From positions 15,689-79,688 of the forward strand of contig NZ_JANFNG010000001.1 in the NCBI RefSeq assembly GCF_024436035.1: a DNA stretch of 64,000 nucleotides, read 5' to 3'. Shown in pieces: positions 10,530 to 55,924 of this stretch (within the stretch, counting starts at the first letter, position 1; every line of letters begins with the position of its first letter). The notes under the pieces are model-generated. The model ran no database searches. It worked only from the letters and a program-made list of their open reading frames with translations, and was not told where the DNA came from. The DNA is from Streptomyces humicola (GTDB lineage Bacteria; Actinomycetota; Actinomycetes; Streptomycetales; Streptomycetaceae). The translations under genes were made by a program, and so were the position numbers.

Positions 10530-10996
10530 TCCAGATTGGGGCGGCTCATGGCGGGGTGCAGGTAGGCGCGGGCGGCGCTGAGTCGGCGCCCGCGGTGCAC
10601 ATTGCGGTCGAAGGCGGCAAAGCCCTCCTGGCGGTAGCCGTTGACATCGTCGGTCAGCGGGGTGACCCGCCCGCTGCACGGCTTGGAAGAAGGCGCCGTA
10701 CAGCGGGTTGGTGGCCGGTCCACGTTCGAGTACGAGAGGTCCATGATGGCCACGGAAGACCCTCTCTCGTACTGCCAGTCGTAGAGCCGCTTGCCGATGG
10801 GGAAAGTCAGCGCCGCCGGCATGTGGATGAGGACATCCCACCGGTAGTCGGGGCGCCCCGCTTCCAGCACCAGCACCCGGTTAGCGGGGTGGGCACTGAA
10901 CCGCGCCGCCAGTACGCAGCCGGCAGAACCCCCGCCGACGATAATGAAGTCGTCTGCCGCTCCGAAGCCATGGTCTCCTGCCGTAGCTATGGGCAT
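10530..10996 (-). pseudogene. GMC-family oxidoreductase (choline dehydrogenase-like) remnant: internal deletion, two frameshifts, C-terminally truncated
   Basis: FAD motif IIVGGGSAGCVLAARFS runs to YDWQYE. It then jumps to GHHGPLVLERGPATNPL in a second frame and to LTDDVNGYRQEGFAAFDRNV...RPNLEVRTRA in the first frame, then ends. About 70 aa are missing between the blocks. Confidence 0.6.
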
Positions 10997-11139
10997 CTGA
11001 GGTGCGATGCCTTTCTCTTCGGGCAGCTCAGCGCACACCATCTCCACCCGCACCGGGCCGCCGCCCGGCCCTTTGAGGCCGGACCGCCCCACCACCGGCA
11101 CCCTCCTCGACGAGCACGGATCGGTACATGGACCGGCGG

Positions 11140-14025
11140 TCAGGCCGGAGGCAGCGGCTGCTCGGCCCAGATGACCTTGCCTTGAGCGGTGTAGCGGGCA
11201 CCCCAGCGTTGGGCGAGCTGGGCGACGAGGAACAGGCCACGGCCGCCTTCGTCGGTTGCGGCGGCTTGGCGTAGGTGAGGGGAGGTGCAACTGGTGTCGG
11301 AGACCTCGCAGACAAGCGTCCGGTCGCGCAGCAGGCGCACCTGGATGGGGCCGGTTGCGTGGCGGATGGCGTTGGTGAGCAGCTCGCTGAGGATCAGTTC
11401 GGTGGTGAAACAGATCTCCTGCAGTTCCCAGATGGCGAGCTGCTGGGTGACCGCAGCACGAATGTCGGGCACGATGGCCGGGTCGGCGGGGAGGTCGTCC
11501 CAGCAGGCGATGTCGAACGGATCCAGACCGTGCGGTCGTACGACAAGCAAGGTGACGTCATCATCGCTTGGTTGGGACGACGGCAGCCCTTCGATAACGG
11601 CCAGGCAGGTCTCCTCCGGCGAGCGGTGAGGCCGGCCAAGAGTCCGGCGGAGATCCTCCAGAGCGATCTCTATGGATCGCTCGCGGTCCTCCACGAGCCC
11701 GTCGGTGTAAAGGACCAGTTGGCTGGCGTCCGGCAGTTCGATTTCGGCCGACTCGAACGGGAATCCACCCAGGCCGAGCGGCGGCCCGGCGGGAAGCTCG
11801 GGAAATGTCACCGTCCCGTCGGGCTCGACGAGCGCCGGCGGAAGGTGTCCCGCACGAGCCAGTCTGCAACGCCGGGACGTCGGATCGTAGATCGCGTAGA
11901 GGCAGGTGGCTCCCACGAACACGTCTGCCTCGCTCTCCTCCCTGGCCATCTGGTCGACCAGGTCGTCGAGGTGCGCGAGCAGTTCGTCCGGGGACAGTTC
12001 GAACGTCGAAAAGTTGCGCACGGCAGTGCGCAGACGCCCCATGGCCGCTGCGGCATGGACGCCGTGGCCGACCACGTCGCCGACGACCATGGCAACGCGG
12101 GTTCCCGACAGGGGTATGACATCGAACCAGTCACCACCGACTCCGGCGTGTGCGGGCAGGTAACGGTGAGCGACTTCCAAGGCATTCTGTTCGGGTAGGC
12201 CCCGGGGGAGCAGGCTGCGCTGAAGGGTGAGGGCCAAGGTGTGCTCGCGGGTATAGCGGCGCGCGTTGTCGATGCAGACGGCGGCGAAGGCGACCAGCTC
12301 CGACGCGACGCAGAGATCGTCGTCTTCGAAAGGTACCGAGCTTTGCGAACGGTAGAAACTGGCCACCCCCAGGGCCACTCCGCGCGCGCTCAGAGGGACG
12401 GCGATGAGGGAATGGAATCCCTGGTCGAGGATCGCTCCGGCGCGTATCAGGTCCTGGGCTGCCCAACCGCCCGCTGCCTTCAGGTCCGGCTCGATCGCCG
12501 GCGAACCGCACGCCAGGCACCTGGCCTGCGGTGTGCTGGGGGCGAAGCTGACCTGCTCACCCGCGGCATAGAAGAGGGAACTGTCCCGCCCGCCCACGGC
12601 AGCACGGTGCAACATCGCGATCGTGGCTGAGGGCTCGTCCCCGCAGAGCACGGAAGGGTACAGATCGACGGTGACGACATCGGCGAAGTTTTCGATCACC
12701 ACCTCAGTCAGTTCTTCGGAGGTACGGGCCACATCCAGGGTGGTGCCGATATGGCGGACGGACTCGCGAAGCAGCTCCAGGCGGCTGCGAGCCGCGAGGA
12801 CGAGCCTGCCGACGCCGGGCTCGCCAACGGCCAGCAGCGATCTGGAGTGGCGCCCAACGACCCCGTCGGCCACTGAGGCGACGGTGGGAGCGGAGGACGC
12901 AGACCCAGGGGCCCTGGCCGTCTCGTGCCCGTCGATCCTCGACAAGGGCGTCGATATGGAATCGGGCAAGTCACCCGTCGTGAATACTGTGGCGCAGGCA
13001 GGGATGACCACCTCGACCGAGACACCCTCGGATGCGTCCGCCACCGGCCGGGCCAGGAGGGTGGCCGCGCGACCGCCGGACAGCGGCACTTCGATGGCGG
13101 CCCTTCGACCAGAGGCGATCAGCTCTGCCGCCTTCTCCTCCACGATGAGCCGGTCGGAGCCGTTCGGTATGCCGTCGGTCGGGGCACCGAGGTCGATCCG
13201 CCTTCTCCCCTCGAAGGCGGATAGCCGCGCGCGGCGTTCGGCCTCCAGGTATGCCTGCAGCAGGGCACGCTCGCGATCCGTCGTCTGTGACAGCAACCTC
13301 CGTTCGATCGCGAGGCCTGCTTTCCGGGCCATGGCTTCCAACGTCGGGGCGAATTCGGTTCTCCGGGACGCAAAGTCCAGGACACCGACGATGCGTCCGC
13401 TCAGCGGGTCGTGCACCGGAACGGCCACGCAGCTTTCCACCGTCCATGCATCTGCGAAGTGCTCATGACCGTGGACGCGAGAAATGCTCCGCTCCACGAG
13501 TGCGAGGCCGATGGAATTGGTACCGGCGAGCGACTCGTGGAAGCTGAAGCCGGGTGCGCTACCGCCGACCTCCTCCAGATATTTGGTTACCCGCGGTTCG
13601 CCGGCCAGGCATCCGAGTACCACGCCATCGCCGTCGGTGAGGGTCACCGTCACCCACGCACCCGCAATCGCCGTTGCCAATGTGTCGAGCACAGGCTGCG
13701 CCGCGCGAACAAAATCGGTGTCCAGGTCGGGTTCTCCCTGGTAGGTGGACTCGACGCCTGCTGGCGTAAGACCCAGGGATTGGCAGCGGCGCCACGAAGA
13801 CAAGATTGCGCTGCGCACCCGGGCGACTACCGGCTCACCCGCAAGGAACCGCTCACGGCCGCGCGCGACGAACTCGTCGCCCCGATTGTCGTGCGCCACA
13901 TGGATCACTTCCCACTCGTGGAAGTTTCGGCGGTCGTACAGTCCAGCACTTAACAGGCGAGGACGCAGGTGAACGGCATTCCGGGCGAATATATCCCGTT
14001 CAATCGAACGGGGAAAGTCCTCCAC
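11140..14025 (-). CDS. multi-domain signalling protein: GAF domains + PP2C/SpoIIE phosphatase + C-terminal HATPase (anti-sigma-factor kinase-like)
   Basis: AcoR-like GAF N-terminus. PP2C motifs (GGDWFDVIPL, VGDVVGHGVHAAAAMGRLR). C-terminal ELLTNAIRHA...GRGLFLV HATPase_c. Confidence 0.75.
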   Translation of the reverse strand: MEDFPRSIERDIFARNAVHLRPRLLSAGLYDRRNFHEWEVIHVAHDNRGDEFVARGRERFLAGEPVVARVRSAILSSWRRCQSLGLTPAGVESTYQGEPDLDTDFVRAAQPVLDTLATAIAGAWVTVTLTDGDGVVLGCLAGEPRVTKYLEEVGGSAPGFSFHESLAGTNSIGLALVERSISRVHGHEHFADAWTVESCVAVPVHDPLSGRIVGVLDFASRRTEFAPTLEAMARKAGLAIERRLLSQTTDRERALLQAYLEAERRARLSAFEGRRRIDLGAPTDGIPNGSDRLIVEEKAAELIASGRRAAIEVPLSGGRAATLLARPVADASEGVSVEVVIPACATVFTTGDLPDSISTPLSRIDGHETARAPGSASSAPTVASVADGVVGRHSRSLLAVGEPGVGRLVLAARSRLELLRESVRHIGTTLDVARTSEELTEVVIENFADVVTVDLYPSVLCGDEPSATIAMLHRAAVGGRDSSLFYAAGEQVSFAPSTPQARCLACGSPAIEPDLKAAGGWAAQDLIRAGAILDQGFHSLIAVPLSARGVALGVASFYRSQSSVPFEDDDLCVASELVAFAAVCIDNARRYTREHTLALTLQRSLLPRGLPEQNALEVAHRYLPAHAGVGGDWFDVIPLSGTRVAMVVGDVVGHGVHAAAAMGRLRTAVRNFSTFELSPDELLAHLDDLVDQMAREESEADVFVGATCLYAIYDPTSRRCRLARAGHLPPALVEPDGTVTFPELPAGPPLGLGGFPFESAEIELPDASQLVLYTDGLVEDRERSIEIALEDLRRTLGRPHRSPEETCLAVIEGLPSSQPSDDDVTLLVVRPHGLDPFDIACWDDLPADPAIVPDIRAAVTQQLAIWELQEICFTTELILSELLTNAIRHATGPIQVRLLRDRTLVCEVSDTSCTSPHLRQAAATDEGGRGLFLVAQLAQRWGARYTAQGKVIWAEQPLPPA

Positions 14026-14233
14026 CGATCAGGCGATCCTTCCTCTCACCTGCATGGATGGACTTTTCGGCCCCCACAACGTCGCGGGCGTCCGCAAGGC
14101 TCTCGTCGACCAGGGTTCAGCCGTCGCTGACCACGGTGCCGCTCTCGGCATCGAGTGGAGATCGTCGAGCCGAACCCGCAGCCGGTCGGCTTCGTGCCAC
14201 AGCTTCGATGCGACAGGATCCGTGCGAATGTGG

Positions 14234-16351
14234 TCAGTTGGCTCGTCCCGGGGGGTGTCCTCCGCTGGGGGCGAAGGGTTGTGCGTGGGCGATGAGCAAG
14301 GCGACGTCGTCGTGGTCCTCGGGGCTTCGGAGTTCTCGAAGGAGCCGGTCACAGGTGTCCTCCAGGAGCCGGTCGGGGGCGTCGAGCAGGTGGAGGAGGG
14401 CTTCGAGGCGCTGGTCAATGGGGTGGTGGCGGGTTTCGACGAGGCCGTCGGTGTACAAGACGAGCCTGTCGCCGGGGTCGAGGCGGAAAGTGGTGGTCTC
14501 AAAGAGGACACCGCCCAGTCCCAGCGGCGCGCCGGTGGGAAGATCGAGCAGTTCGGGATCCTTGCCACCGCGTATGAGAGCGGGTGGCAGGTGTCCGGCG
14601 GTGGCGATGCGACACCTGGCGGTGTGTGGATCGTAGACGGAGTAGCAGCAGGTGGCGATGTAGTTCTCCAGACCTGTGGTGATCCTGTCCAGGTGATGGA
14701 GCACGTCGGCCGGGTCGAGATCGAGGTCGGCGAAGGCGCGGGTGGCAGTGCGCAGGCGTCCCATGGTGGCAGCGGCGTCGATGCCGCTGCCCATCACGTC
14801 GCCTACCACGAGGGCGGTCTTGTCTGCGTCGAGAGGGATGACGTCGTACCAATCGCCGCCGACCTCATAGGCGGCCTGCGCGGGCAAGTACCGTGAGGCG
14901 ACTACCAGGCCAGGGTGACGAGGCGGATGTTCCGGAAGCAGGCTGCGCTGCAGGGTCTCGGCGGCGTTACGCACGCTCTGGTACCAGCGGGCGTTGTCGA
15001 TGCACACCGCCGCGCGGGAGGCAAGCTCACATGCGAGGGTGAGATCGTCCTGGTCGAGCGGCCGCGGATTGCGGGCACGCGCGAGGCCGAGGAAGCCCAG
15101 GACCTCACCGCGGGCGATGAGCGGAACCGCCAGGTAGGAGTGAATCCCGGCTCGCGCAAGGAGGGCGGCGGCGTCGGAGTCACGGGCGATGCGGGCCAGG
15201 TCTCCGTCGTCGACATGGGAGATCAGAAACGGGCAGCCGGTACGGACACAGCGAGTGGCCAGGCGGTCGGGCTCGTATGCGGCGATGTGGCCTGGCGGAT
15301 CGGCGGCCTGGACGGCTTCGGTGGAATAGGCCGCCTTCACCGCGAGCGCGCGGAACAGTGCCGGGCCGCCGCTGGGGGCAGGCGCGCGGTTGTCCAGGAC
15401 AGAGTCGAGGACATCGACTGCTGCCATGTCGGCGAGTTCTGGCACGGTGACCTCGGCCAGCTCGCAAGCGGTCTGCTCCACTTCCAAGGTGGTGCCGATA
15501 CGGGCGGAGCCGTCGGCGATCAGGGCCAGGCGTCGCCGAGCCCGGGCGGCCTCGGTGATCGCTTGGTATCGTTCAGTGACGTCAACGACCGAATCGGCCA
15601 CCCCCAGCACGTTCCCGGCGGGGTCCTCCAGTCGGTAGAACGACAGCGACCAGGCGTGGTCGTGATCCGGGTCGATGGGCGGTCGGGCGATGGTGTAGCG
15701 ATCGACCAGCGGCACGCCGGTCTCCAGGACCTTTCGCATCGCGGCCTCGAGCACGTCGACGGGCAGGCAAGGCAGGACATCGCGGTAGCGGCGGCCGAGG
15801 TGGTCCTTCGCCGGAAGGCCGTGAATCCGCTCGAGAGCGGGGTTGACGGCCACATAGCAGAGGTCGGTGTCAAGGACGGCCAGCCCGATCGGTGACTGGG
15901 AGACCAGCCGGGTGGACAACGCGAGGTCCCGCTCCACCTCGCGCAGGGTGGGCTCATCGGTGGCCAGCCCCAGGGCGTAGAAGTCCCCGCGATCATCCAG
16001 CAGCCGCATATTGCGGAATTCCACCAGGCGGGTGGTGCCGTCCTTGTGCCGGATGGGGAAGGCCCCGGCCCACGTCTCACCGCTCGCCATGACGTCGACG
16101 AACAACTTGATGATCAGATCCTGGTTCTTCTCGTGAACCAGCAACGGCGCCGCGTACTGGCCAAGCGCCTCACCGGCCGTGTAGCCGAGTAGCTCTTCGG
16201 CCTGCGGACTCCACAAGACGATGCGCCCATCAGCGTCCAACAGCACCGCGGCGACAGAGAGGAGATCCATCAGCCCGCTCGGCCGAGATGAGCCGTCCGC
16301 CGGCCGGCTGGTGTCAGTCGGACGCCTGTCGGTTGTGCTCATTGCAGGCAC
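14234..16351 (-). CDS. PAS-PAS-GAF-PP2C (SpoIIE-family) protein phosphatase
   Basis: PAS S-box blocks and a GAF region. PP2C motifs (GGDWYDVIPL, VGDVMGSGIDAAATMGRLR). Confidence 0.75.
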   Translation of the reverse strand: MPAMSTTDRRPTDTSRPADGSSRPSGLMDLLSVAAVLLDADGRIVLWSPQAEELLGYTAGEALGQYAAPLLVHEKNQDLIIKLFVDVMASGETWAGAFPIRHKDGTTRLVEFRNMRLLDDRGDFYALGLATDEPTLREVERDLALSTRLVSQSPIGLAVLDTDLCYVAVNPALERIHGLPAKDHLGRRYRDVLPCLPVDVLEAAMRKVLETGVPLVDRYTIARPPIDPDHDHAWSLSFYRLEDPAGNVLGVADSVVDVTERYQAITEAARARRRLALIADGSARIGTTLEVEQTACELAEVTVPELADMAAVDVLDSVLDNRAPAPSGGPALFRALAVKAAYSTEAVQAADPPGHIAAYEPDRLATRCVRTGCPFLISHVDDGDLARIARDSDAAALLARAGIHSYLAVPLIARGEVLGFLGLARARNPRPLDQDDLTLACELASRAAVCIDNARWYQSVRNAAETLQRSLLPEHPPRHPGLVVASRYLPAQAAYEVGGDWYDVIPLDADKTALVVGDVMGSGIDAAATMGRLRTATRAFADLDLDPADVLHHLDRITTGLENYIATCCYSVYDPHTARCRIATAGHLPPALIRGGKDPELLDLPTGAPLGLGGVLFETTTFRLDPGDRLVLYTDGLVETRHHPIDQRLEALLHLLDAPDRLLEDTCDRLLRELRSPEDHDDVALLIAHAQPFAPSGGHPPGRAN

Positions 16352-16554
16352 TCCCTTCGCCTGCCGGCAACATGCGAGCCCTCCGCCAGCTCCCTACCGC
16401 GACCTGCAGCTCAGCTGGCTTGCATCAGGTTCCATGGTCTCGCGGATCGGCCGAGCGCACAGCCCCCGGTCCAGCCGCGTCGCGCCGGAAGGCCCACCGC
16501 TCACCGTTGTGTCCTGCCGGTGGCGAGCCGCCCTTGCCGGAGCGTCTGCGCAGG

Positions 16555-16599
16555 ACTGAGGGGTCAGCCCCAGTCCGACCCCTCCGACCCCTCAGTCCT
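16555..16599 (-). terminator. stem-loop (CTGAGGGGTC ... GACCCCTCAG) directly after the small ORF stop
   Basis: 10-bp perfect inverted repeat with a ~25-nt loop, read directly from the sequence. Confidence 0.35.
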
Positions 16600-16605
16600 G
16601 GGAGC

Positions 16606-16677
16606 TCAGTAATAGCTCTTGTGGCACCGCTTGCGGCGACGACGGTGCCTGCCGTCGAGCCATCCGAAGATGCCCAT
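16606..16677 (-). CDS. 23-aa highly basic small protein (MGIFGWLDGRHRRRRKRCHKSYY)
   Basis: AGGAGG lies 8 nt upstream of the ATG. GC3-rich codons. The stop is followed at once by a 10-bp perfect inverted repeat. I translated this by hand; it is not in the ORF track. Confidence 0.3.
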   Translation of the reverse strand: MGIFGWLDGRHRRRRKRCHKSYY

Positions 16678-17001
16678 GTTCGACCTGCCTCCTGCGCATC
16701 ACCCGGTCGAGAGGATCACCCTCGTCGCATATTCGCCTACCCGCTCTGCGCGTGTGCACCAGCCGAGCTGTCCGGCCCGCCCCGGCGAACAGAGCACCGC
16801 CGCGTCACGGCGACGGTGGGGCTTTCGGAGGCCCCTCAGACGTCGGCCGGGTGCCTGGATGCCGTCCGCGCAGTCGATGTTGCCCTTGCCCTTGGCGGCG
16901 GGACACGGTAGTGGAACTGCACGGCGATCGGGTCGTGGCCGCCTTTCGTCGGCAGGTTCGGTGCGGGACGACTCAACGTCCCACACCGGGCCGCCGAGTT
17001 G

Positions 17002-18459
17002 TCACCGCCGGTGTGCCGAGGCGGCTGTTGAGCTGGGCGTCGTTTGGTATGGCGCCGTGGCGTGCTGGGCTGCGTAGAGCAGCGCGGGCTTCATCTTCGG
17101 CCAGAAGTAGCTGTCCTGGCAGGAGTACGGCGGCGTGAATCCGTCGCAGCCGCGGTTGTCGACGTCGCCGATCTCGATGGTGAAGCTGGCGAGGCCGAGC
17201 TTGTCGTAGGTCCAGTCGTCGGTACCGCCGGACGCGTCGTAGAGGATCTCGCCGGCCTGGCCGTACTGGTAGCCGGTGATCGAGCCCAGCTGGGCGGCGA
17301 TGCCGCGCAGCGCGCTGTCGTTCCCGGTGTGCACGGTGGAGTCGTACTCCCATGGGAACAGCACCATGCTGGCGTCGCTGTGCATGGTGATCATCATGCC
17401 CCGGGCGGTGTCCGGTGCCGGGTCGGTGACGCCGCTGCCGGTGCGCACCGCGGGGTACAGCTCGCGGAAGAGCCCCTCCAGCGCGGTGTTCTCGGTCTCG
17501 GAGTCCGCGGCGGGGCCGTCGTACTCCTGGTCGCACGGCTGGTGCGAGATTCCGGTGGTGTCCCAGTGGGTGCCCGCGTTGCGGTTGAGGTCGACGCCGA
17601 TCTGGCTCTCCGCGCTCGCGCCGCAGGACGAGCCATTGGTGTCGTCGGCGTTCTTGCGCTGCAGAACGGGGTTGTCACCCCCCTGTGCGACCATGTCGAC
17701 GCCGTCGGGATTGGCGTCGGGAACGACCCACATCTCGGTGGTGTCCATGAGCTTGGTGATGTCCGAGTCCTTGCCGTACTGACCCGTCAACTCGTCGATC
17801 CAGCGCCACGAGATCTCCCCGGTGGCGATCTCGCGCGCATGGATCTGGCTCATCAGGAAGAACCGCGGTTTGGCCGAGTTGGGGTTGAGCTGACAGTCCC
17901 CCTGCTGCATCTTCGTGATGCAGATGGCCTTGAGATCCTCACCGCCCTTCCCCTGCTTCTTCAGCCACGACTGCCCGTACGTCACGACTGTCGCGAGGTC
18001 CGGGTGCTGGCTGACGACCTGGTCCATGTGCGCGTACTGCGCGTCCACGGTGTGATAGCCGCCGTCGTATGTGTCGTCCACGCCGGTGGCATGGGGCTTG
18101 TCCAGCCTGAGGGGCTTCGGCTTGGGCATCGACTTGACGACCTTCGGCGAGAAGCCGAGCGTGCGCAAGCCGCTTGCGGCCGTCGAATCGCCCATCACGA
18201 ACAGGTCGTTGCCCTGCCGGTGTTCCATCAGGTCGTACCCGTCGCGCATCAGCGTCTGGGCGTCCTGCTCAAGGTGGTGCGTCCGCACCCGGTAGACGAA
18301 CACGGTGTTCTGGGTGGCGTTCTGGGCTGTGTCGCCGGCCGCCCGCGCGGGGTTGGCGTACGTGGTGACGTGGGCCGATGCGGCCTGGGGCAGTAGGGCC
18401 GCGGCGACCGCGACAACCGCTCCGGCGGCTATGCCCGCCGCCAGGCGTTTGCGTGGCAT
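17002..18459 (-). CDS. secreted M14 zinc carboxypeptidase (carboxypeptidase T-like)
   Basis: Signal peptide (MPRKRLAAGIAAGAVVAVAAALLP). M14 motif QIHAREIATGE. The start lies inside the longer ORF. Confidence 0.8.
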   Translation of the reverse strand: MPRKRLAAGIAAGAVVAVAAALLPQAASAHVTTYANPARAAGDTAQNATQNTVFVYRVRTHHLEQDAQTLMRDGYDLMEHRQGNDLFVMGDSTAASGLRTLGFSPKVVKSMPKPKPLRLDKPHATGVDDTYDGGYHTVDAQYAHMDQVVSQHPDLATVVTYGQSWLKKQGKGGEDLKAICITKMQQGDCQLNPNSAKPRFFLMSQIHAREIATGEISWRWIDELTGQYGKDSDITKLMDTTEMWVVPDANPDGVDMVAQGGDNPVLQRKNADDTNGSSCGASAESQIGVDLNRNAGTHWDTTGISHQPCDQEYDGPAADSETENTALEGLFRELYPAVRTGSGVTDPAPDTARGMMITMHSDASMVLFPWEYDSTVHTGNDSALRGIAAQLGSITGYQYGQAGEILYDASGGTDDWTYDKLGLASFTIEIGDVDNRGCDGFTPPYSCQDSYFWPKMKPALLYAAQHATAPYQTTPSSTAASAHRR

Positions 18460-18937: not shown

Positions 18938-19954
18938 TCAGTACTGCTCGGTTTCGATGTACCCCGTGTCGTCGTCGGCGCCGAAGGCGCCCGCGGCAGC
19001 GGTGGTGTCGAATCCGGGCGGGCTGTCCTTGAAGGCCAGGCCCATACCGGCCAGCTTCGCCTTGACCTCGTCGATCGACTTCGCACCGAAGTTGCGGACG
19101 TCGAGCAGGTCGGCCTCGCTGCGCGCCACGAGCTCGCCCACGGAGTGGATGCCCTCGCGCTTGAGGCAGTTGTAGGAACGGACGGTCAGCTCGAGCTCCT
19201 CGATCGGCAGTGCGAGGTCAGAGGCTAGGGCGGCGTCCGTCGGGGACGGGCCCATGTCGATGCCCTCGGCGTCGATGTTGAGCTCGCGGGCGAGCCCGAA
19301 GAGCTCGACCAGCGTCTTACCGGCCGAGGCCATCGCGTCACGCGGGCGCATGGCCTGCTTGGTCTCGATGTCGAGGATCAGCTTGTCGAAGTCGGTGCGC
19401 TGCTCGACACGGGTCGCCTCGACCTTGTAGGTGACCTTGAGCGCCGGGCTGTAGATGGAGTCGACCGGGATCCGGCCGATCTCCTGGCCCTGCTGCTTGT
19501 TCTGGACCGCGGAGACGTAGCCGCGACCGCGCTCGACGGTCAGCTCCATCTCCAGCTTTCCCTTGCCGTTGAGGGTGGCGAGGACCAGGTCCGGGTTGTG
19601 CACCTCGACACCGGCCGGCGGGGCGATGTCGGCGGCGGTGACCAGACCGGGCCCCTGCTTGCGCAGGTACATCACGACCGGCTCGTCGTGCTCGGAGGAG
19701 ACGACCAGGCTCTTGATGTTGAGGATGAGGTCGGTCACGTCCTCCTTGACGCCCGGCACGGTGGTGAACTCGTGCAGCACGCCGTCGATCCGGATGCTGG
19801 TGACGGCAGCGCCGGGGATGGAGGAGAGGAGAGTGCGACGCAGGGAGTTACCGAGGGTGTAGCCGAAGCCCGGCTCCAGCGGCTCGATGACGAACCGGGA
19901 GCGGTATGCGTCCACGACCTCTTCGGTGAGAGACGGACGCTGAGCGATCAGCAT
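18938..19954 (-). CDS. rpoA: DNA-directed RNA polymerase alpha subunit
   Basis: 338 aa from [14 protein letters not shown] to the C-terminal alpha-CTD. It matches canonical actinomycete RpoA almost residue for residue. GGAGG RBS 9 nt upstream. No rpsK or rplQ neighbours. Confidence 0.9.
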
Positions 19955-20412
19955 GAGGTATTGCCTCCAGTTTTCGGCGCCCGCTATGTGATGCCGGTCC
20001 ACCGAGCGGTAGCCCGGTGTTGATACTGCAAGGCTACGGGCGTACGAGCTGAATAGCTTCGTACCACCCGTAATGGGGCGTGGCGAGCGCGCGACGATCT
20101 TCGTCAACCTGCGGCATCGATCGGAGTGCCAGGCGGTGGCGCGGCCGGAGCGCGATCTACCGGGCCGCCGCCCCGGGCGTCGAGGCTCATGTCCGGGTAG
20201 CGGACAGCGAACGACAAGTGGGGAGGCCATCGGCGTTCACTTCTGACTACCACGGTCACGCCTCAGTCACCGGACGCTGCTACGCGCGCAGCAGGGGGGC
20301 GTTTCATCCAGAGATGCAGGGAACGCAGAACGGCAGTCGACGATCGAAGCGTACGTTGTGCACGCCGGGCCGCACGTACCTACTGCGTCTCGGCTCGCCA
20401 CCGGAATCGTGA

Positions 20413-23711: not shown

Positions 23712-23815
23712 GTGTCCGTGCCAGGGCCCGGGGTGAGCAAGACAGCGGCAGATTGGCTGGTTGGTCGTTACCGGGTGATCGAGCAAATCGGGCGGGGCGG
23801 TATGGGCGAGCCGCA
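23712..23815 (+). pseudogene. Ser/Thr protein kinase N-terminal fragment
   Basis: LVGRYRVIEQIGRGGMGE is the Gly-rich ATP loop of Hanks kinases. The sequence diverges immediately afterwards. Confidence 0.35.
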
Positions 23816-24515
23816 GCACCAGGGCCTGGATGGACCGGATGGTCCGCGAGTGTCCTGGTCGCTTCGGCCTGCGCTGCTGGGCGTTGCCCTTGCCGCCGGA
23901 CAGGCGTGTCAGGCTCATCGATCGGGCGGCATGCTGCACACCCTGCCGTTCCTGATCCCCAGTACCGCGGACGCGCCGGCCGTGGCGCTCGCCACGATCG
24001 CCTTCGAACTGGTGGCCCTGGCCTGGATCCGATGGCTTCGGTACCGGCTTCCTCCGCTCCTTCGCCGTCATCGCGATCGGTGGGTCGGTCATCACGAACG
24101 TCAGCGCCGTGCTCGGCGCGGTCAGCTGACCAGGCAGGTCCCCGCAGCAGCGCTGCCAGCGGCCCATGGCTCCAACAGTGCATGGCCCCGGCGCGGTCGG
24201 TGAGCACGGCTACGTGCCGTCTCACAGGGTCGCATGACGACGGATGCGCACGGTCGTTACGGGATCCAGCTTCGAGGGCCCCGACAAGCCCTGCAAAGAA
24301 CCAGCAAAGGTGTGATGCCCGGCCTCGCCGGGCGCCACGGAAACCTCATCGCTGAGGTGTCCGCAGGAATGGCCCCTGCCTACGCTTTACAAGGCAAAGG
24401 GGCCCTTAGACCTTCGGATTCCGTTGACGCCAGGGGGTTGTGGCGACGTTTTAGCCATGGCACGCTCCACTGCGTCGCGACACCGAGATCACCGCCTGAC
24501 CAAACGCAACCGCGA

Positions 24516-24944
24516 AGGGCCACCGTGTATTTCGAGACGCTCAAAGCCAAGATCCACCGTGCCACCGTCACCCAGTCGCACCTCAACTACGTCGGCTCCA
24601 TCACGATCGACCTCGATCTGATGGAAGCGGCAGGCATCCGTCGCCACGAGAAGGTCGACCTGGTCAACGTCACCAACGGCGCCCGTCTGTCGACCTACGT
24701 CATCGAAGGACCCAGGGGATCTGGCGTCATCGGGGTCAACGGCCCATCCGCCCGGCAAGCCCAGGTCGGCGACCTCGTCCTGATCGTGTCGTACGCCTCG
24801 GTCACGCCGGAGGAGGCCGATGGGTTCGAGCCGAGGGTCGTCTTCGTCGACAGCAAGAACAAGATCACTGGCTTCGGCGGGGACGCAGCCGAAGTGCCGC
24901 CCGGGAGTGGCCTCGTGCGTGGCGACCAGATAGCCGGTGTCTGA
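24516..24944 (+). CDS. panD: aspartate 1-decarboxylase (pyruvoyl-dependent)
   Basis: GTG start. KIHRATVTQ...YVGSITID carries the Gly-Ser self-cleavage site, then GSGVIGVNG. 142 aa. Confidence 0.85.
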
Positions 24945-25046
24945 GCGGATGGGCCCCGGGGCGCGCCGGGCCCGTCCGTATCACCCTGCTCCTCAGGCAG
25001 CCTCCCCCGCCTCCTCGGCGACATCTCGACCCCGAACGGGAATAAA

Positions 25047-26441
25047 TTGACCTCCACGCTTTGCGCATCCACGGTGCTGAAGAACGCTCTCACGCACTAC
25101 CACGCAGAACTGCAGGACGCTATGGCGGCCTTGGAAGGCGACCGCGTCGAAGGCGACGAAGCCTTCTCGCCCGCCTTCCGCCTGCCCGACCCCAGTGCCG
25201 CCCTCGAGCGGTTCTTCTCGGTGTCCGACATCGGCGTCACCGAACTGCCCGCCTATCATGGTCACGCCCTCCGCCTTCTCGACTTGATGCGGAACCCGGG
25301 AACGCATACCACCAAGACGCTCGCCTCGCTCACCATCATCGCCCGGGCCGTGCGGCACATCACCGAGACCGGTGAACGCATCATGATCGTCACCCCGTCG
25401 TCCGCGAACAAGGCCACAGCCCTGCGTGACGCGGTTCATCGAGCCATTAGCGCTGGACTGGTGACGGAGAATCAGCTGCAGATCACCAGTGTGGTGCCCG
25501 CGGTGTCCACCGCCAAGCTCTGGTCGTCACCGTTGAGCGAGCACGCTGAGCTACGACGTCGCAATCCGCTGGTGGTGCACGAATCGGAAGAGCCGGCCTC
25601 GGTCAAGGAACTGGCGTCCGCGTTCGCGGCCGAAAACGCCGAACGTCTCCAAAGACGGTACGGCGTCCGTATCTGGTACACGCTCGGGCTCGACAACTAC
25701 CGGGCCGCGGACATGATCCGCGCGTTCGCCGAGCGGGACCTGCTGCCCGGAGCGGACAGCGGCACTCCAACCCGTACCCATGTCCACTCCGTCTCCAGCG
25801 CCTTCGGCCTGCTCGGTCATGACCTGGGGCACCGCAAGGTCACGGAAAACGGCTGCCGAACGCTGCCGCAGGCCCGCTATTTCCTCGTCCAGCACCTCGG
25901 CACTCCGGACATGGTGCTCAGTCTCCGCCATGGCACACACGACCGCGGAAACCTGCCCGTGTACCGCCTGGACCAGGCCGAGGGCCTGTACCGACAGGAC
26001 GAGGACCCGCACTTCCCTGCGACGACGTTTGATCCCGAGGAACAGCTCGATCCCACTTTCTACACCCGCCGTCCGGTCACCTCTGCGCAGATGGATAGCA
26101 TCATCGCCGCGCAGGGCGGAGGCGGCGTTGTCGTCTCGCTGCACGAGTGCCTGAGCCGGTACGCCGAAGTGCGCGCCCTGCTGGCCGATGCCGATGTCAC
26201 GTTGCCCGTCGACCCCCGACGGCTGCGCGAGTGGTCGCTCGTGATGGCGGTCACCGGAACCCTGAACGCCGCCGACCGCGGGCTGCTGCCGGACAGTGGC
26301 GACGTGCTGATCCACGGCTCCGGCAGCTACAGCGACCGGGATTACCATCCAGTGCCTGCCCATCACCGTTTCACGGCGGCGGACATGACGGCTCTTGCAG
26401 GCCACGTCGAGGACGCAGTCCGCGCCGCAACCTCCCGCTGA
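25047..26441 (+). CDS. divergent fold-type-II PLP-enzyme-like protein (threonine synthase / Trp-synthase-beta superfamily-like)
   Basis: By-eye alignment to ThrC. GVTELP aligns to EGGTPL. NPGTHTTKT aligns to NPTGSFKDR, and the Lys is retained. TPSSANKATAL...ISAGL aligns to ASTGNTSASAAAY..AGI, and the Asn is retained. Spacing is conserved. Confidence 0.35.
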   Translation: MTSTLCASTVLKNALTHYHAELQDAMAALEGDRVEGDEAFSPAFRLPDPSAALERFFSVSDIGVTELPAYHGHALRLLDLMRNPGTHTTKTLASLTIIARAVRHITETGERIMIVTPSSANKATALRDAVHRAISAGLVTENQLQITSVVPAVSTAKLWSSPLSEHAELRRRNPLVVHESEEPASVKELASAFAAENAERLQRRYGVRIWYTLGLDNYRAADMIRAFAERDLLPGADSGTPTRTHVHSVSSAFGLLGHDLGHRKVTENGCRTLPQARYFLVQHLGTPDMVLSLRHGTHDRGNLPVYRLDQAEGLYRQDEDPHFPATTFDPEEQLDPTFYTRRPVTSAQMDSIIAAQGGGGVVVSLHECLSRYAEVRALLADADVTLPVDPRRLREWSLVMAVTGTLNAADRGLLPDSGDVLIHGSGSYSDRDYHPVPAHHRFTAADMTALAGHVEDAVRAATSR

Positions 26442-26482
26442 ACCCGCCGCGTCCGCCGGTAACCATACGAACAGGAGCAGTC

Positions 26483-27235
26483 ATGCCCAGGCAACCGGAC
26501 AGTCTGCTGTCCCTCACCGACTTCAACGGCACGCCATTGGCGGAAGAGATGGTGTGGAAGACGTTCCACGGCCTGATGGAGCGCCATGGCTATGTCTTCA
26601 TGAGTAACGTGCCCGACGCGTTCGATCCGGTGGCCTTCTGCAAGAGGCTCGGCGACTTCGTCCCTCAGTACACCGGTGTGCTGGTCGGCGACGTCACCCC
26701 GGAGCCGGGAATGGAGGAATTCTATCACGCGGGAAACACCAAGCCCCTGTATCCGCATTCAGAAGGCTACGACTTCGAAGGTCTGCCTCCCCGCTACCTC
26801 GCCCTGTGGTGCGAGACCCCCAACACCGGCGCAGGCGGCGAGACGACGATCGCCGACGCCCGCGCCTGGACTGAGTCGCTGGCCGAGGCCGACCGCGCGT
26901 ATCTGCGCGAGCGCATCTGGGCGTGGGAGACCACGGACGCGATGCGTCATCTCGGCCTCGACCTGCACCCCGAGCACCCGGTCATCGAGGACCACCCGGA
27001 CGGCACCATCGTCCGCTACTCCTTCAACAACCTGGTGCGCGGCGGGGATGATCGGATCGGGCCGCTGCTCGACAGCGCGAAGGAGTACTTCGAACGCGAG
27101 CACGTGGCGATCCAGTACGAGCGGCGAGACATGCTCGTCTTCGACAACTGGCGCATGCTGCACGCCCGCAACGCGTTCACCGACACCGGGCGCCACCTGC
27201 GCCGTATCCAGATCGCCCACCGGATCACGGCATGA
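26483..27235 (+). CDS. TauD/TfdA-like Fe(II)/2-oxoglutarate-dependent oxygenase
   Basis: AGGAG RBS. HSEGYDFEG (HxD/E), distal His, and RxxxxxH near the C-terminus (LHARNAF...RHLRRIQ). Confidence 0.55.
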   Translation: MPRQPDSLLSLTDFNGTPLAEEMVWKTFHGLMERHGYVFMSNVPDAFDPVAFCKRLGDFVPQYTGVLVGDVTPEPGMEEFYHAGNTKPLYPHSEGYDFEGLPPRYLALWCETPNTGAGGETTIADARAWTESLAEADRAYLRERIWAWETTDAMRHLGLDLHPEHPVIEDHPDGTIVRYSFNNLVRGGDDRIGPLLDSAKEYFEREHVAIQYERRDMLVFDNWRMLHARNAFTDTGRHLRRIQIAHRITA

Positions 27236-28320
27236 CCGCTGCAGCACCGGCGGGCGTCGCCGTGGTGGGCGGCGGATCGCTGGCCCGCAGCATCTGTTAC
27301 TCGCTGGCACTCGCAGTCGATCCGCCGCCCGGCACCGTGACCGTTCTCGCCCGTTCCGCACGGGCGGCGAGGGAGATCGCGTGCATCGCCAACACGCGAG
27401 CCGCGACCTCCGCGTCCCCCACTCGGTTCACAGCCGAGGTCCTGGACGCCTCGGACCACGGGACGGCTGCCCGCTTGCTGCAACGCATCCGACCGCGCGT
27501 CGTACTCCACTGCGCGTCACTGCAGTCACCTTGGGAGAGCACACGCGCTCCATCCGCCTGGACCAAGCTCCTAGCAGCCGGCGGGTTCGGCATCGCTCTA
27601 CCGCTGCACGCGGTACTCGCCCGGGACATCGCCCGAGCAGTCCAACTCAGCGGTGTCCCCGCGATGTTCGTCAACGCCTGTTATCCGGACGCAGTCAACC
27701 CTCTTCTGCACGCCGAGGAACTGCCCGCGTTCTGCGGTGTGGGGAACTCCGCAACGCTGGCGGCCTCGCTCCACGCCGTACTGCAACCGCAGGCGGACGA
27801 GCGGCTGCGTATCCTCGCCCACCACGCCCATCTGCACGCTCCCGTAGATCCCTCGGACGAGGTCCGGGTGTGGCTCGGTGACAGGTCGGTGGAGCGGGTG
27901 GGTGAACTGCTCGCAAGCCACCGTGCCTGCTCCCGCGAGGAGTTGAATGCGGTGACGGGACACACGGCTGCCGTGCTCGCTTCCCGCCTGGCTGCCGGTA
28001 CCGAGGTACGCGCCAACCTTCCCGGGCCGCTGGGACTGCCGGGCGGCTACCCCGTCCGCATCCAGGATGCCCGGGTCACGCTTGACCTGCCGAACGGCCT
28101 CACTCCGGAAGAGGCCGTCGCGTGGCAGCTGCGCATGGCCGAGCACGACGGCGTCGTGGTCACGCCTTCCGGCGATGCGCGCTTCGGCCAACGGGCCCAA
28201 GAGGCCCTGTCCGAACATCTGGCGGACGTACCGGAGTGCCACAGAGCACCGGAGGTGAAGGTGCTGGCGTTGCAACTACTGAGCCTGCGCGAGAAGTTGC
28301 GCAGAAAGCCGTCCGTGTGA
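27232..28320 (+). CDS. NAD(P)-binding Rossmann-fold oxidoreductase (saccharopine-dehydrogenase/OCD-like, uncertain)
   Basis: ATGA overlap with the upstream gene. N-terminal GVAVVGGGSLARS dinucleotide-binding motif. Confidence 0.4.
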   Translation: MTAAAPAGVAVVGGGSLARSICYSLALAVDPPPGTVTVLARSARAAREIACIANTRAATSASPTRFTAEVLDASDHGTAARLLQRIRPRVVLHCASLQSPWESTRAPSAWTKLLAAGGFGIALPLHAVLARDIARAVQLSGVPAMFVNACYPDAVNPLLHAEELPAFCGVGNSATLAASLHAVLQPQADERLRILAHHAHLHAPVDPSDEVRVWLGDRSVERVGELLASHRACSREELNAVTGHTAAVLASRLAAGTEVRANLPGPLGLPGGYPVRIQDARVTLDLPNGLTPEEAVAWQLRMAEHDGVVVTPSGDARFGQRAQEALSEHLADVPECHRAPEVKVLALQLLSLREKLRRKPSV

Positions 28321-28656
28321 CGTCCGCTGCCCGCCGGGGTGCGGCGGTCGGGCACGGGCGAGGACAACGGCTCAACCTTGAAGGTGGCAGGCGAGCCGGC
28401 CGCCACGCCTGTTGGAGACAGCGGCGAGCCGTCCCGAGGCCCGCGTGCTGCTCGCCCTGGCCCCGACCCCGGCGCGGGCGGCCCGCCTGTCCATGGCACA
28501 GCTCCGGTCGGGTCTCGAGCGAGCGGGCCCCAGCCGCGGTATCGAGGCCGAAGCCGAGCGGCTGCGCGAGGTCTTCCGGGCCGACTACGCCCACGAATCA
28601 AGGGCGCCCCCTGCCGCCGCGGCGGAAGGGGGCGCCCTCGTACGCGTGCCGGTGGA

Positions 28657-30084
28657 TCAACGCCGCTTGCGGGCGCCGCCCTCCTGGTGGGGCGGGGTCT
28701 GCTGCGTGCCCGGGAGCGTTGGCTTCGGTAGGGTCGCGACTTCCTGCTTGGCCTGCGCCAACTGCTGCGCGGTGTCGTCAGGCAGCTGTGGCGGGCGCGG
28801 CGCCGCATGCGAGAAGCCGAAGGCGGAGGTCAGGTCGCCGAAGGTGCGGCGCCGCCACTGGCTGATGTTGGGCTCCTCGACACCGGTGAAGCGCTCGAGG
28901 AACTGCAGCACCGAGGTGTGGTCGAAGGATTCACCGGCCGCCCAACCGCCCACCGTCCACGGCGAGATGATGATGCACGGCACCCGGAAGCCGCCGCCGA
29001 TCGGCAGGCCGTCGACGAACTCGTCGGCCGTACCGGGGTTGGGGGTGGGCGGCGGTACGTGATCGAAAAGGCCGTCGTTCTCGTCGTAGTTGAGGATGAA
29101 CGCCGTCTTCGCCCACACCTTCGGGTTACTGGCAATCGCCTCGATCTTGGAGGCGACGAAGTCGGCACCGGCGGCCGGCAGATAGTCCGGGTGTTCGGAC
29201 TGGGTGCTGGTGGGGAGGATCCACGAGACCGCGGGGAGGCGGTCATTGCGCGCGTCGTCCTCGAAGGTGCCCTCCGGCTGGAAGGTCATGCCGTTGTCGT
29301 ACAGCGGGTCGCCGGGCTTGGCGTCCTGGAACTGCTGGAACTCCGACAGCATGTTGGTGCCGTAGTTGTCGGTCTGCTGGTAGACCTTCCAGCTGATCCC
29401 GGCCGCCTGCAGCCGCTCCGCGTACGTCGTCCAGCGGTAGGGCTCGGGCGCGACGTTGGAGAGTACGGGCCCGCCCCTGGTGCCGGAGGGGTCAATCGTG
29501 CCGGTCATCCAGTACAGGCGGTTGGGCCAGGTCGGGCCCATGATCGAGCAGAAGTAGTTGTCGCAGATGGTGAAGTTCTCCGCGAGCGCGAACTGGAACG
29601 GTATGTCGTCGCGGGTGTAGTAGCCCATGACGTACGGGCCGTTGGCACCGTCGGCAGCCCGGTGCGCGGGCAGCCACTGGTCCATCTTGCCGCCGTTCCA
29701 CGCCTGGTGCTGTACGGCCCAGGCGTGGCTGGTGGACGGGATCGACTGGGCGCTCGTGGTGTGCGTATCCAGGTGGAACGGCAGCAGGTAGCCGTCGGGG
29801 TTGACGGAGTCGGGCTGGTAGAAGACCGAGCGGCCTGTGCTGAGGCGCAGGGCGTCGGGGTCGCCGAAGCCGCGTACGCCGCGCAGCGTGCCGAAGTAGT
29901 GGTCGAAGGAACGGTTCTCCTGCATAAGCAGGACGACGTGCTCGACGTCCGCGAGCGAGCCGTGCGTCGCGGGTCCCGCCGCGACCGCCTGCTGGATGCT
30001 CGGCGGGAGCAGCGTCAGCGCGGCGGCCCCGCCGACCGCGCCCGCCGCCGCGCCGAGAAGTCTGCGTCGGGTCATGTCCGGCAT
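28657..30084 (-). CDS. Tat-secreted phosphoesterase family protein (phospholipase C / acid phosphatase AcpA-like)
   Basis: Twin-arginine signal MTRRRLLGAAAG. ENRSFDHYFGTLRGVRGFGDP phosphoesterase motif. Confidence 0.8.
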   Translation of the reverse strand: MPDMTRRRLLGAAAGAVGGAAALTLLPPSIQQAVAAGPATHGSLADVEHVVLLMQENRSFDHYFGTLRGVRGFGDPDALRLSTGRSVFYQPDSVNPDGYLLPFHLDTHTTSAQSIPSTSHAWAVQHQAWNGGKMDQWLPAHRAADGANGPYVMGYYTRDDIPFQFALAENFTICDNYFCSIMGPTWPNRLYWMTGTIDPSGTRGGPVLSNVAPEPYRWTTYAERLQAAGISWKVYQQTDNYGTNMLSEFQQFQDAKPGDPLYDNGMTFQPEGTFEDDARNDRLPAVSWILPTSTQSEHPDYLPAAGADFVASKIEAIASNPKVWAKTAFILNYDENDGLFDHVPPPTPNPGTADEFVDGLPIGGGFRVPCIIISPWTVGGWAAGESFDHTSVLQFLERFTGVEEPNISQWRRRTFGDLTSAFGFSHAAPRPPQLPDDTAQQLAQAKQEVATLPKPTLPGTQQTPPHQEGGARKRR

Positions 30085-30603: not shown

Positions 30604-31260
30604 GTGCTGCTGCGACTGCCCTACCTCGCCATGTCGATCGTGTTCGCCGTCATACGGCTGCTTCCGATGAGCGATGTAGACAAGGACATCCAGATATTGA
30701 CGCTGCGCCACCAGCTGGCCGTCCTGCACCGGCAAATCGACAGGCACAGGTCGTCCCGGCGGACCGCGCCTTCCTCGCCGCGTTCCTTCACCGGCTGCCC
30801 CGCATTCTCCCCGGACACGATCCTGCGGTGGCGCCGCGACCTCATGCGCCGCCGCCACGCCGATACCTTCCGCCGCAAGCGGGCCGGCAGGCCGCCGACC
30901 CGCCGCGCCACCCAAGCCCTCGTCCTGCGCCTGGCCCGCGAGAACGCAGGCTGGGGCTACCGGCGCATCCACGGCGAACTCGCCGGCCTCGGCATCAAGG
31001 TCGCACCCTCCACCGTGTGGGAGATCCTCCGGGCGCAGGGGATCGAGCCGGCGCCCGAACGCGATCACCAGACCTGGGCCGCCTTCCTGCGAAGCCCGCC
31101 CACACGATCCTGGCCTGCGACTTTTTCACCGCCACCACGCTCAGCGGGGCGAGACTCTATGTCTTCGCCGTCATCGAGCACGCCAACCGCCGCGCTCGCC
31201 TCATCGGTTCCGACTGCGGACAACGCCCGTTGCCTGACGCGCTTCAGGCAAGGGGGGCGT
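30604..31260 (+). mobile_element. DDE (rve integrase-core) transposase remnant, IS481/IS3-like, frameshifted and truncated
   Basis: LARENAGWGYRRIHGELAGLGIKVAPSTVWEIL is followed in the +1 frame by HTILACDFFTATTLSGARLYVFAVIEHANRRARLIG. No complete DDE domain. Confidence 0.65.
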
Positions 31261-31397
31261 AACGCTGATTTTCGACTTCATGCCGGAGCAACCGGATATG
31301 CCGACGTTTCGCCTGCCGAAAAACCTATCCAGTGACGTCAGGCGGATTGACTGTCCACGTCGCCTTGAGTGATGGCCAGCCGACTCACTGGAGTTGT

Positions 31398-51699: not shown

Positions 51700-52080
51700 C
51701 TATCGCCTGCGCATGATCTGCGGCTCGAAGCTGCCCTCGCGATCGCGTGGCACGTCGACCTCGACCGGGCCGACCTCAGTGATGACGGTCTTCGACCGTG
51801 TTCCATCGCGTGAGTTCCCCGATCCAGCCCCGGGCTTGTCGCGCTTCTCGTAGCCAAGATGGCCGGTGCTCTCGCCCTCGAGGGCAGACTCCAGAACCCT
51901 TTTCGTCAGCTGTTGCAGCGGCCCACACCCGCCGGTCAGCTTGATGTCTTGGGCACGAGCACAGTCGACCAACTGTCCGGTCAACTCAACTGCTCGTCCA
52001 ACGCGTCCGGCTTCTGCTCGATCCGCTGGACTTCCTCAACCGCCTCGGCAGATGCGATCACATCGCTCATCAGGTGTTCT
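51700..52080 (-). mobile_element. IS256-family (mutator-type) transposase N-terminal remnant with internal stop, C-terminally truncated
   Basis: LQQLTKRVLESALEGESTGHLGYEKRDKPGAGSGNSRDGTRSKTVITEVGPVEVDVPRDREGSFEPQI is the classic IS256 block. An upstream piece (MSDVIASAEAVEEVQRIEQKPDALDEQLS) is separated from it by TGA. Confidence 0.7.
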
Positions 52081-53843: not shown

Positions 53844-53895
53844 GCATGTACTGGGATTTCCTGCTACCTGCTGAGCAAGAGCTGAAGGAGACGAC

Positions 53896-55845: not shown

Positions 55846-55924
55846 GCGGCGGAGTGTGGGCTGGAGGGTGAGCTCACGTCCGTAGATGTAACTCGAAACA
55901 ATCTCAAGGAGAACGGAGAGAATT

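Follow-up and report, generated by a model that had tools for sequence, protein, structure and literature searches.

The window analyzed here, a 64,000-nt stretch of the genome of Streptomyces humicola strain RB6PN25 with a G+C content of about 68%, carries four genes on its forward (+) strand at 24525–28320, which encode an aspartate 1-decarboxylase (PanD), a protein of the family DUF6002, a TauD-like oxygenase and an oxidoreductase. On balance, we favor the reading that this cassette supplies the core enzymes of a small specialized-metabolism operon, one that is horizontally mobile and represents the minimal form of a large family of DUF6002 gene clusters, and that it makes a β-alanine-derived amino acid by the general scheme proposed below. 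The chemistry of that scheme is drawn by analogy, its product is a prediction, and each particular order of steps would be far less probable than the scheme itself.

Recurrence and Integrity of the Cassette

A scan of one genome per species for relatives of DUF6002 gave 337 positive genomes, and the best 80 loci from these were analyzed over 10 kb on each side (single loci are cited as L001, L002 and so on). The order panD–DUF6002–TauD–oxidoreductase, with the same spacing, was found in L001–L003 and L005–L008 and in two strains of Streptomyces decoyicus; overall, the four-gene block is present in at least nine other Streptomyces genomes, where the next gene downstream encodes an exporter of the EamA/drug-metabolite transporter (DMT) type. 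L004 is cut by a contig end ahead of panD and was kept outside this count of complete cassettes. In S. decoyicus, whose chromosome measures 9.23 Mb, the cassette is found at 8.35 Mb. None of the genes that flank the cassette in the window (phospholipase-C-like, ParA-like, PanE-like and an ABATE/CGNR regulator) occurs in any of the 80 loci, and for this reason we conclude that the block moves independently of its surroundings. All four genes are intact, are read in one direction and evolve under purifying selection: compared with S. decoyicus, their ratios of nonsynonymous to synonymous substitution rates (dN/dS) are 0.07, 0.19, 0.11 and 0.32, and the protein lengths are identical.

A check for co-occurrence across related genomes had been set beforehand and came out positive, with the nine or more Streptomyces cassettes and with PanD linked to DUF6002 in 35 of the 80 loci. 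This supports the proposal, made in a preliminary description of the window, that the cassette serves an accessory small-molecule pathway and not housekeeping synthesis of pantothenate (vitamin B5). In the housekeeping alternative, panD would make pantothenate precursor and its three neighbors would be functionally unrelated to it. An equivalog-level PanD with a full set of catalytic residues would fit this, as would a gene for a PanE/ApbA-family reductase 2.4 kb upstream, but the four genes co-occur in order elsewhere and the PanE-like gene does not accompany them; its linkage to the cassette was rejected on the count of zero in 80 loci. Moreover, the cassette is sporadic and was seen in only a few species of Streptomyces, in contrast to the universal synthesis of pantothenate, and the cassette PanD clade is only 59–65% identical to the common PanDs of Streptomyces. 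The two S. decoyicus strains hold the cassette PanD, and the assembly of another strain holds a different one (62% identical). Taken together with the linkage data, this makes a housekeeping role highly improbable.

The Four Genes and Their Products

The sequence confirmed the arrangement that had been described, namely four same-strand genes with spacers of 102, 41 and −4 nt, the last of which is an ATGA overlap of the oxidoreductase start with the TauD-like stop codon. The end of the reported span, 24516–28320, was also right, but its start was not, as position 24516 falls within the ribosome-binding site (RBS), 9 nt before the GTG start codon at 24525. The gene panD (24525–24944, +) has the RBS GAAGGG and encodes 139 aa. 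It is followed by the DUF6002 gene (25047–26441, +; 464 aa, TTG start), by the gene for a TauD/TfdA-family Fe(II)/2-oxoglutarate oxygenase (26483–27235, +; 250 aa, catalytic core only, with a GGAG RBS) and by that for an NAD(P)-dependent oxidoreductase whose family has no name (27232–28320, +; 362 aa). The NCBI annotation starts the DUF6002 gene at GTG 25074, which gives 455 aa. This start is probably 27 nt too late and the 464-aa reading the better one, because the RBS-like element GAACGGGAA-N4-TTG/GTG at the position equivalent to 25047 is kept in all nine aligned cassettes, which come from different Streptomyces species, and the N-terminal MTSTL of the longer protein is conserved as well, whereas GTG 25074 is not. 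For the fourth gene, the pattern of G+C by codon position is ambiguous, and an antisense open reading frame (ORF) at 27598–28275 is equally good in third-position G+C; solely the forward frame is both open and conserved over about 350 aa (35–78% identity) in other genera, and we read the gene as coded on the + strand.

PanD matches PF02261 with E=6e-48 and scores 158.3 bits against TIGR00223, for which the equivalog cut-off is 106. An alignment of 19 PanDs, the window protein included, showed that the Gly24-Ser25 processing site is invariant, along with K9, H11, Y22, R54, T57, Y58 and N72. The earlier assignment as a genuine pyruvoyl aspartate 1-decarboxylase is thus borne out by score and residues alike, and we infer that the enzyme acts on L-aspartate to give β-alanine. 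PanDs of the cassette type are 78–94% identical to the window protein and have Pro74-Ser75 at a place where other PanDs have Ala-Ala; they appear to form a clade separate from the common Streptomyces enzymes. The different PanD of the other S. decoyicus strain (P0303; 62% identical to the cassette PanD) was seen at 4303–4719 of L084 (Streptomyces decoyicus JBEXGW010000015.1), where its neighbors are a thioesterase and a module of a nonribosomal peptide synthetase (NRPS). It thus seems common for PanD copies to be drawn into clusters in Streptomyces.

The 464-aa protein belongs to DUF6002 over its full length (PF19465, E=7.5e-194), and the search of the literature for DUF6002, PF19465 and combinations with enzyme names returned nothing relevant. 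In the preliminary description it had been regarded as a divergent threonine-synthase-like protein of a pyridoxal phosphate (PLP) fold, and fold comparison with Foldseek upheld this: its nearest structures are threonine synthases, CapA2, O-ureidoserine synthase and O-phosphoserine sulfhydrylase, with CapA2 giving the best whole-length template modeling (TM) score of 0.60. The comparison places it within the fold-type-II PLP enzymes (the tryptophan-synthase-β/threonine-synthase superfamily), and DUF6002 is accordingly modeled as a fold-type-II PLP-like protein that is nearest to threonine synthase and cysteate synthase. Invariant in the family are K81 (in N-P-x-T-x-T-T-K; K90 when counted from the TTG start), which sits at the N-terminus of the helix 82–99, S109-S110-x-N112 in an S-S-x-N-K-A loop and a GGGG loop at G348–G351. 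These are candidates for the Schiff-base lysine, the loop that binds the substrate carboxylate and the glycine-rich phosphate loop of the superfamily, respectively, and their placement fits that pattern. Sequence methods were less telling: the window protein has no match to PF00291 (PALP), for which one of 22 DUF6002 members reaches E=1.8e-5, the DUF6002 profile found nothing among PDB sequences, and hhalign found nothing between the DUF6002 alignment and E. coli ThrC. The predicted tie of DUF6002 to PLP enzymes is thus one of fold comparison alone.

The third protein matches PF02668 with E=5e-27 (95.8 bits; gathering cut-off, 27), and H92-x-E94, H227 and Arg237/240/241 are invariant among 12 orthologues from five genera, which indicates that the iron and 2-oxoglutarate ligands are retained. 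This agrees with its description as a TauD/TfdA-type Fe(II)/2-oxoglutarate oxygenase with an intact HxE...H triad. It has no TauD equivalog match; the best named NCBIfam models, TmpA and γ-butyrobetaine dioxygenase (BBOX), give 32 bits against cut-offs of at least 400, and among PDB entries 7tcl matches best (E=1.5e-7). The 362-aa oxidoreductase, which is present as a protein in the NCBI annotation and has 340 homologues, matches no Pfam or NCBIfam model and no PDB sequence. Fold comparison revealed a Rossmann N-terminus within a complete two-domain fold of the lactate/malate dehydrogenase (LDH/MDH) type, so that its earlier description as an NAD(P)-binding Rossmann enzyme stands; the names saccharopine dehydrogenase (PF03435), which some databases attach to it, and TrkA were rejected for it on the fold. 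An invariant cluster of His residues (197/198/200), noted by eye, could supply the catalytic His (His195 in LDH/MDHs).

Wider Family of DUF6002 Clusters

Counts across the 80 loci were made by tblastn, and co-occurrence of TauD was taken from clustering. PanD, a very rare gene per genome, lies within 10 kb of DUF6002 in the 35 loci mentioned above, which are spread across genera; in 24 loci it is the gene immediately 5' of DUF6002 on the same strand. Of the 80 loci, 27 have the oxidoreductase and 17 the TauD-like gene, which is accompanied by PanD (15/17) and by the oxidoreductase (14/17). In 18 loci, DUF6002 is accompanied not by PanD but by a split thiamine pyrophosphate (TPP) decarboxylase whose relatives are the sulfopyruvate and phosphonopyruvate decarboxylases; its subunits score below the ComD and ComE cut-offs and equally well against phosphonopyruvate decarboxylase (Ppd). 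The product of PanD has the form X-CH2-CH2-NH2, of which the product of a TPP/Ppd decarboxylase, X-CH2-CHO, is the aldehyde counterpart. For the most part, a locus has one of these two kinds of decarboxylase and not the other.

The commonest neighbors of DUF6002 are two families that we call c1 (ca. 378 aa; 52 of the 80 loci, and also in Bacillus cereus) and c2 (ca. 444 aa; 32 of the 80), neither of which is matched by any Pfam or NCBIfam model or any PDB sequence. Other frequent neighbors are NRPS, ketosynthase (KS) and condensation-domain proteins, ATP-grasp ligases and an asparagine-synthetase (AsnS)-like enzyme, and further ones include a LanB-N-terminal (tRNA-dependent) enzyme, an F420-type luciferase-like oxidoreductase, methyltransferases and exporters of the major facilitator superfamily (MFS) or EamA type. 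In extended clusters, a class-III aminotransferase adjoins the oxidoreductase. Such neighborhoods look like the signature of a precursor-making enzyme that is common to many specialized-metabolite clusters.

Two loci, L033 (6056–14365) and L021 (Amycolatopsis xylanica and Kitasatospora sp. GAS204B), are phosphonate clusters, with the operon order PepM–Ppd–FAD/NAD(P) oxidase–DUF6002–oxidoreductase–molybdopterin oxidoreductase–MFS. Because the DUF6002/oxidoreductase pair sits in these PepM–Ppd clusters, it would also serve a phosphonate C2 unit. L081, at 10768–17269 of a 481-kb Bacillus cereus plasmid (NZ_CP085499.1), has the order TPP decarboxylase α/β–DUF6002–c1–EamA–histidyl-tRNA synthetase (HisRS) paralogue–ParB-N-terminal-domain protein. 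The HisRS paralogue hints either at a tRNA-dependent step or at self-resistance to a product that targets HisRS. The 349-aa neighbor of DUF6002 in this plasmid was considered as a possible oxidoreductase and rejected, as it belongs to family c1.

Proposed Pathway and Alternatives

In the scheme that we propose, PanD would convert L-aspartate into β-alanine as a supply within the pathway. DUF6002 would catalyze a PLP-dependent β- or γ-replacement on O-phospho- or O-acetyl-serine or -homoserine, a suggestion made because loss of phosphate or acetate, followed by addition of a nucleophile, is the reaction of all the enzymes nearest to it in structure. This nucleophile would be β-alanine or an oxidized derivative of it, which would lead to a diamino or polycarboxy amino acid of the N-(2-carboxyethyl) type. 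The TauD-like enzyme would hydroxylate the β-alanine-derived part, probably at the carbon adjoining the carboxylate to give a 2-hydroxy acid, since TauD and TmpA attack the carbon beside the acid group of their substrates, and the LDH/MDH-like enzyme would interconvert 2-hydroxy and 2-oxo (or imine) forms. In the extended clusters, the class-III aminotransferase would act next and complete a hydroxylase–dehydrogenase–transaminase triad. This would yield a non-proteinogenic amino acid, small and polar, which EamA would export where the gene is present.

The same genes could instead supply L-2,3-diaminopropionate (Dap) or a similar diamino acid, and two versions of this were considered. In the first, which resembles SbnA/SbnB, the PLP enzyme would join β-alanine to O-phosphoserine and the dehydrogenase would cleave the adduct; the second is linear and would run from Asp through β-alanine, isoserine and 3-amino-2-oxopropanoate to Dap by means of the hydroxylase, a 2-hydroxyacid dehydrogenase and amination. 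DUF6002 and the oxidoreductase are adjacent in L021, L024, L033, L056, L063, L072 and L077, and the hydroxylase, the LDH/MDH-like enzyme and the class-III aminotransferase occur together in L011, L028, L045, L046 and L065, as in the classic route from C–H to C–NH2; NRPS, ATP-grasp and AsnS-like neighbors are typical consumers of Dap. However, the oxidoreductase falls outside the ornithine-cyclodeaminase/μ-crystallin family of SbnB and CmnK, and DUF6002 is not an SbnA-like PLP enzyme of the cysteine-synthase family. An SbnA/SbnB-like scheme needs no hydroxylase, and to our knowledge no fold-type-II PLP enzyme acts as an aminotransferase. In addition, the minimal cassette comes with an exporter and no consumer, so that a free end product is likelier than a building block. 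Supply of Dap, though attractive as chemistry, is thus an unlikely purpose of the cassette.

A sulfonate pathway is the other route that we weighed. Here DUF6002 would be a cysteate synthase that makes L-cysteate from O-phosphoserine and sulfite, PanD would decarboxylate cysteate to taurine, and the TauD-like and LDH/MDH-like enzymes would act on the resulting C2 sulfonate, with sulfoacetaldehyde and isethionate as conceivable products; in the sister clusters, the ComDE-like TPP enzyme would decarboxylate sulfopyruvate. For several components, the nearest characterized relatives do come from the metabolism of C2/C3 sulfonates. The oxygenase is a member of the taurine-dioxygenase family, and the alternative decarboxylase scores best against the α subunit of sulfopyruvate decarboxylase, the name that NCBI gives it in the B. 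cereus record. Class-III aminotransferases include taurine:pyruvate aminotransferases, and the Pro-Ser at 74–75 of the cassette PanD is near the active site. On the other side, this PanD is above the aspartate 1-decarboxylase cut-off with normal residues, and the PanDs linked to DUF6002 in other cluster types retain Ala-Ala at these positions; L-cysteate is an inhibitor of pyruvoyl PanD and not a substrate. The TPP subunits, as stated, remain under the ComD/ComE thresholds and fit phosphonopyruvate decarboxylase equally well, the oxygenase has the HxE triad and no TauD equivalog match, no genes that would supply sulfite were noticed in the clusters, and two of the loci are clearly phosphonate clusters. 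We therefore consider a sulfonate product improbable and prefer the β-alanine-derived amino acid.

Several observations speak against this preferred product or restrict its reach. DUF6002, the oxidoreductase family and this clade of TauD-like proteins have no characterized member, and the chemistry is therefore argued by analogy. Compared by eye, the segment of the oxidoreductase that corresponds to L-D-x-x-R reads T-L-A-A-S-L, so that the Asp168/Arg171 motif of genuine 2-hydroxyacid LDH/MDHs seems to be absent. Because both PanD and the TPP decarboxylase are missing from the neighborhood in about 39% of the sampled DUF6002 loci, β-alanine need not be the universal co-substrate of DUF6002. L006 and L007, and only these, combine PanD/TauD and the TPP decarboxylase in one operon, which argues against simple redundancy of the two enzymes and weakens a strict rule of one or the other. 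A second, housekeeping panD in S. humicola has not been demonstrated, as the rest of the genome was not scanned for this gene.

The window copy itself departs from its relatives, since it lacks the EamA exporter gene that all close relatives have and is located between gene debris; the same end product, or indeed any product, may not result. In the extreme case the cassette would be a decaying remnant that makes nothing in S. humicola, a view that is also in keeping with its bounds, which are gene fragments and an ORF with an insertion-sequence (IS)-like helix-turn-helix (HTH) domain, and with its position near a contig end, probably on a chromosome arm (locus tag NGB36_00195). Against this stand four full-length ORFs with lengths identical to those in S. 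decoyicus and low dN/dS, as well as a conserved upstream regulatory region, and another transporter could take over export. There is accordingly only a slim chance that the cassette is a remnant.

A broader proposal, which we offer tentatively as possible but not probable, is that DUF6002 represents a new functional class of PLP amino-acid synthase. Such an enzyme would join activated serine or homoserine to X-CH2-CH2-NH2 or X-CH2-CHO, in which X is a carboxylate, a phosphonate or possibly a sulfonate, and would define a natural-product family that is widespread in actinobacteria and present on one Bacillus plasmid. The window cassette would be the simplest member, in which four enzymes lead from aspartate to an undescribed exported amino acid. 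If the role inferred for the cassette holds, a function would be assigned to DUF6002, which at least 337 species encode: it would be the central enzyme of a biosynthetic module that recurs in NRPS, ATP-grasp, tRNA-dependent (LanB-like) and phosphonate clusters, and a documented panD paralogue recruited to secondary metabolism would be added. With its four or five genes, the Streptomyces cassette is of a size that can be expressed and reconstituted in vitro and offers the most tractable entry to the reaction and product class of DUF6002. The finding has no bearing on a long-standing open question; it is a solid lead for genome mining and not a surprise of principle.

Regulatory Region and Flanking DNA

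About 240 nt 5' of panD are conserved in nine Streptomyces species. In the alignment of the nine cassettes, this region (24293–24524, +) contains a GCAAAG-N5-GCAAAG repeat (24293–24309), the elements ACGGAAAC, TTCGGATTCCGTTGAC and CTTGTGG, a −35-like box TTGAC/T, the palindrome GTCGCGAC (24474–24481) and the RBS of panD. A structured RNA or riboswitch at this site was ruled out by the lack of an Rfam match and a covariation term of −0.9 kcal/mol, and for these reasons the region is more likely to be a promoter/operator than a structured RNA; it is a candidate operator for some regulator.

A GC-rich stem-loop (24945–24979, +) directly follows the panD stop codon, with a minimum free energy (MFE) of −29.2 kcal/mol and z=−3.6, and equivalent hairpins occur at the same spot in the L001, L005 and L082 cassettes. 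It has no T-run and was not called by the terminator scan, and it is a candidate for an intra-operon attenuator or RNA-stability element. As this strong hairpin occupies part of the 102-nt spacer between panD and the DUF6002 gene, the expression level of panD may differ from that of the three downstream genes, which qualifies the preliminary description of the operon as tightly coupled.

Plasmid-type remnants had been reported beside the cassette, and what stands of these is little: the ParA-like ATPase scores below its NCBIfam cut-off, an 81-aa ORF has no ribbon-helix-helix (RHH) match, and the kinase fragment is faint. The last is an N-terminal fragment of a Ser/Thr kinase within an ORF at 23712–24200 (+), where it is joined to a C-terminal fragment of the iron exporter MbfA. 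A plasmid origin was rejected, as PLSDB holds only one plasmid with DUF6002, that of Bacillus cereus, and the sub-cut-off ParA-like gene is unlinked to the cassette elsewhere. Downstream, a gene of the phospholipase-C (PLC)/phosphoesterase family (28657–30084, −; 475 aa) converges on the cassette end and sits at the place of the EamA exporter in the relatives. Its product covers the first ca. 500 of the 688 positions of the phosphocholine-specific PLC model and scores just under the cut-off. An IS110-like fragment at 28382–28657, after the last gene, was a candidate picked by eye and had no support from hidden Markov models (HMMs). The ORF at 30604–31332 (+) contains an IS481/IS630/IS3-like HTH domain only.

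Two features lie farther from the cassette. A paralogue of RpoA with all three RpoA domains is encoded at 18938–20230 (−) between the genes for a zinc carboxypeptidase and the ABATE/CGNR regulator, a context that is not a ribosomal-protein operon. At 52000–60000, the G+C content drops from about 0.68 to 0.60–0.62 over some 8 kb, which suggests a separately acquired island.

Comparison with Known Systems

Threonine synthase and cysteate synthase are the nearest points of reference for DUF6002. Its identity to ThrC is 12–18%, and it differs from ThrC in an extra N-terminal segment, in a conserved insertion of about 60 aa and in its context, which is that of secondary metabolism and not thrABC. 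Cysteate synthase (MA_3297 of Methanosarcina and CapA of Bacteroidota) is the best whole-length structural match, and the split ComDE-like TPP decarboxylase beside DUF6002 in the sister clusters recalls the ComDE of the coenzyme M and sulfonolipid pathways; however, the similarity of DUF6002 to cysteate synthase is below HMM detection, the decarboxylase of the cassette is a true PanD, and no sulfur-related genes were seen.

Paralogues of PanD are known from natural-product clusters, such as CrpG of the cryptophycin pathway, a cluster-embedded pyruvoyl decarboxylase that supplies a β-amino acid. The cassette likewise holds a PanD copy within a cluster, but couples it to DUF6002 and not to an NRPS, and the minimal form has no assembly line. 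The early steps of clavulanate biosynthesis employ CEAS (a TPP enzyme), an AsnS-like β-lactam synthetase and clavaminate synthase, a TauD-family oxygenase with the HxE motif. The wider DUF6002 clusters similarly combine a 2-carboxyethyl-amine precursor with a TPP enzyme, an AsnS-like enzyme and an HxE TauD-family oxygenase. The likeness extends to the parts and no further: an AsnS-like gene is absent from the window cassette, and the TPP enzyme is of the ComDE/Ppd type and not a CEAS.

The two-enzyme Dap synthases SbnA/SbnB (staphyloferrin B) and CmnB/CmnK and VioB/VioK (tuberactinomycins) have no sequence-level relationship to the cassette. The likeness to SbnA/SbnB that was drawn in the preliminary description holds as an analogy between small operons that build amino acids, but not at the level of the enzymes, as the PLP enzyme is nearer to threonine synthase and cysteate synthase and the dehydrogenase is LDH/MDH-like and not ornithine-cyclodeaminase-like. 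Compared with SbnA/SbnB and CmnB/CmnK, the cassette has PanD and the TauD-like oxygenase in addition, and its amine donor would be β-alanine instead of glutamate. The cassette is thus akin to the SbnA/SbnB and CmnB/CmnK operons in its working without being a member of their type, and brings to the task a PLP family of its own and an oxidoreductase of a different fold.

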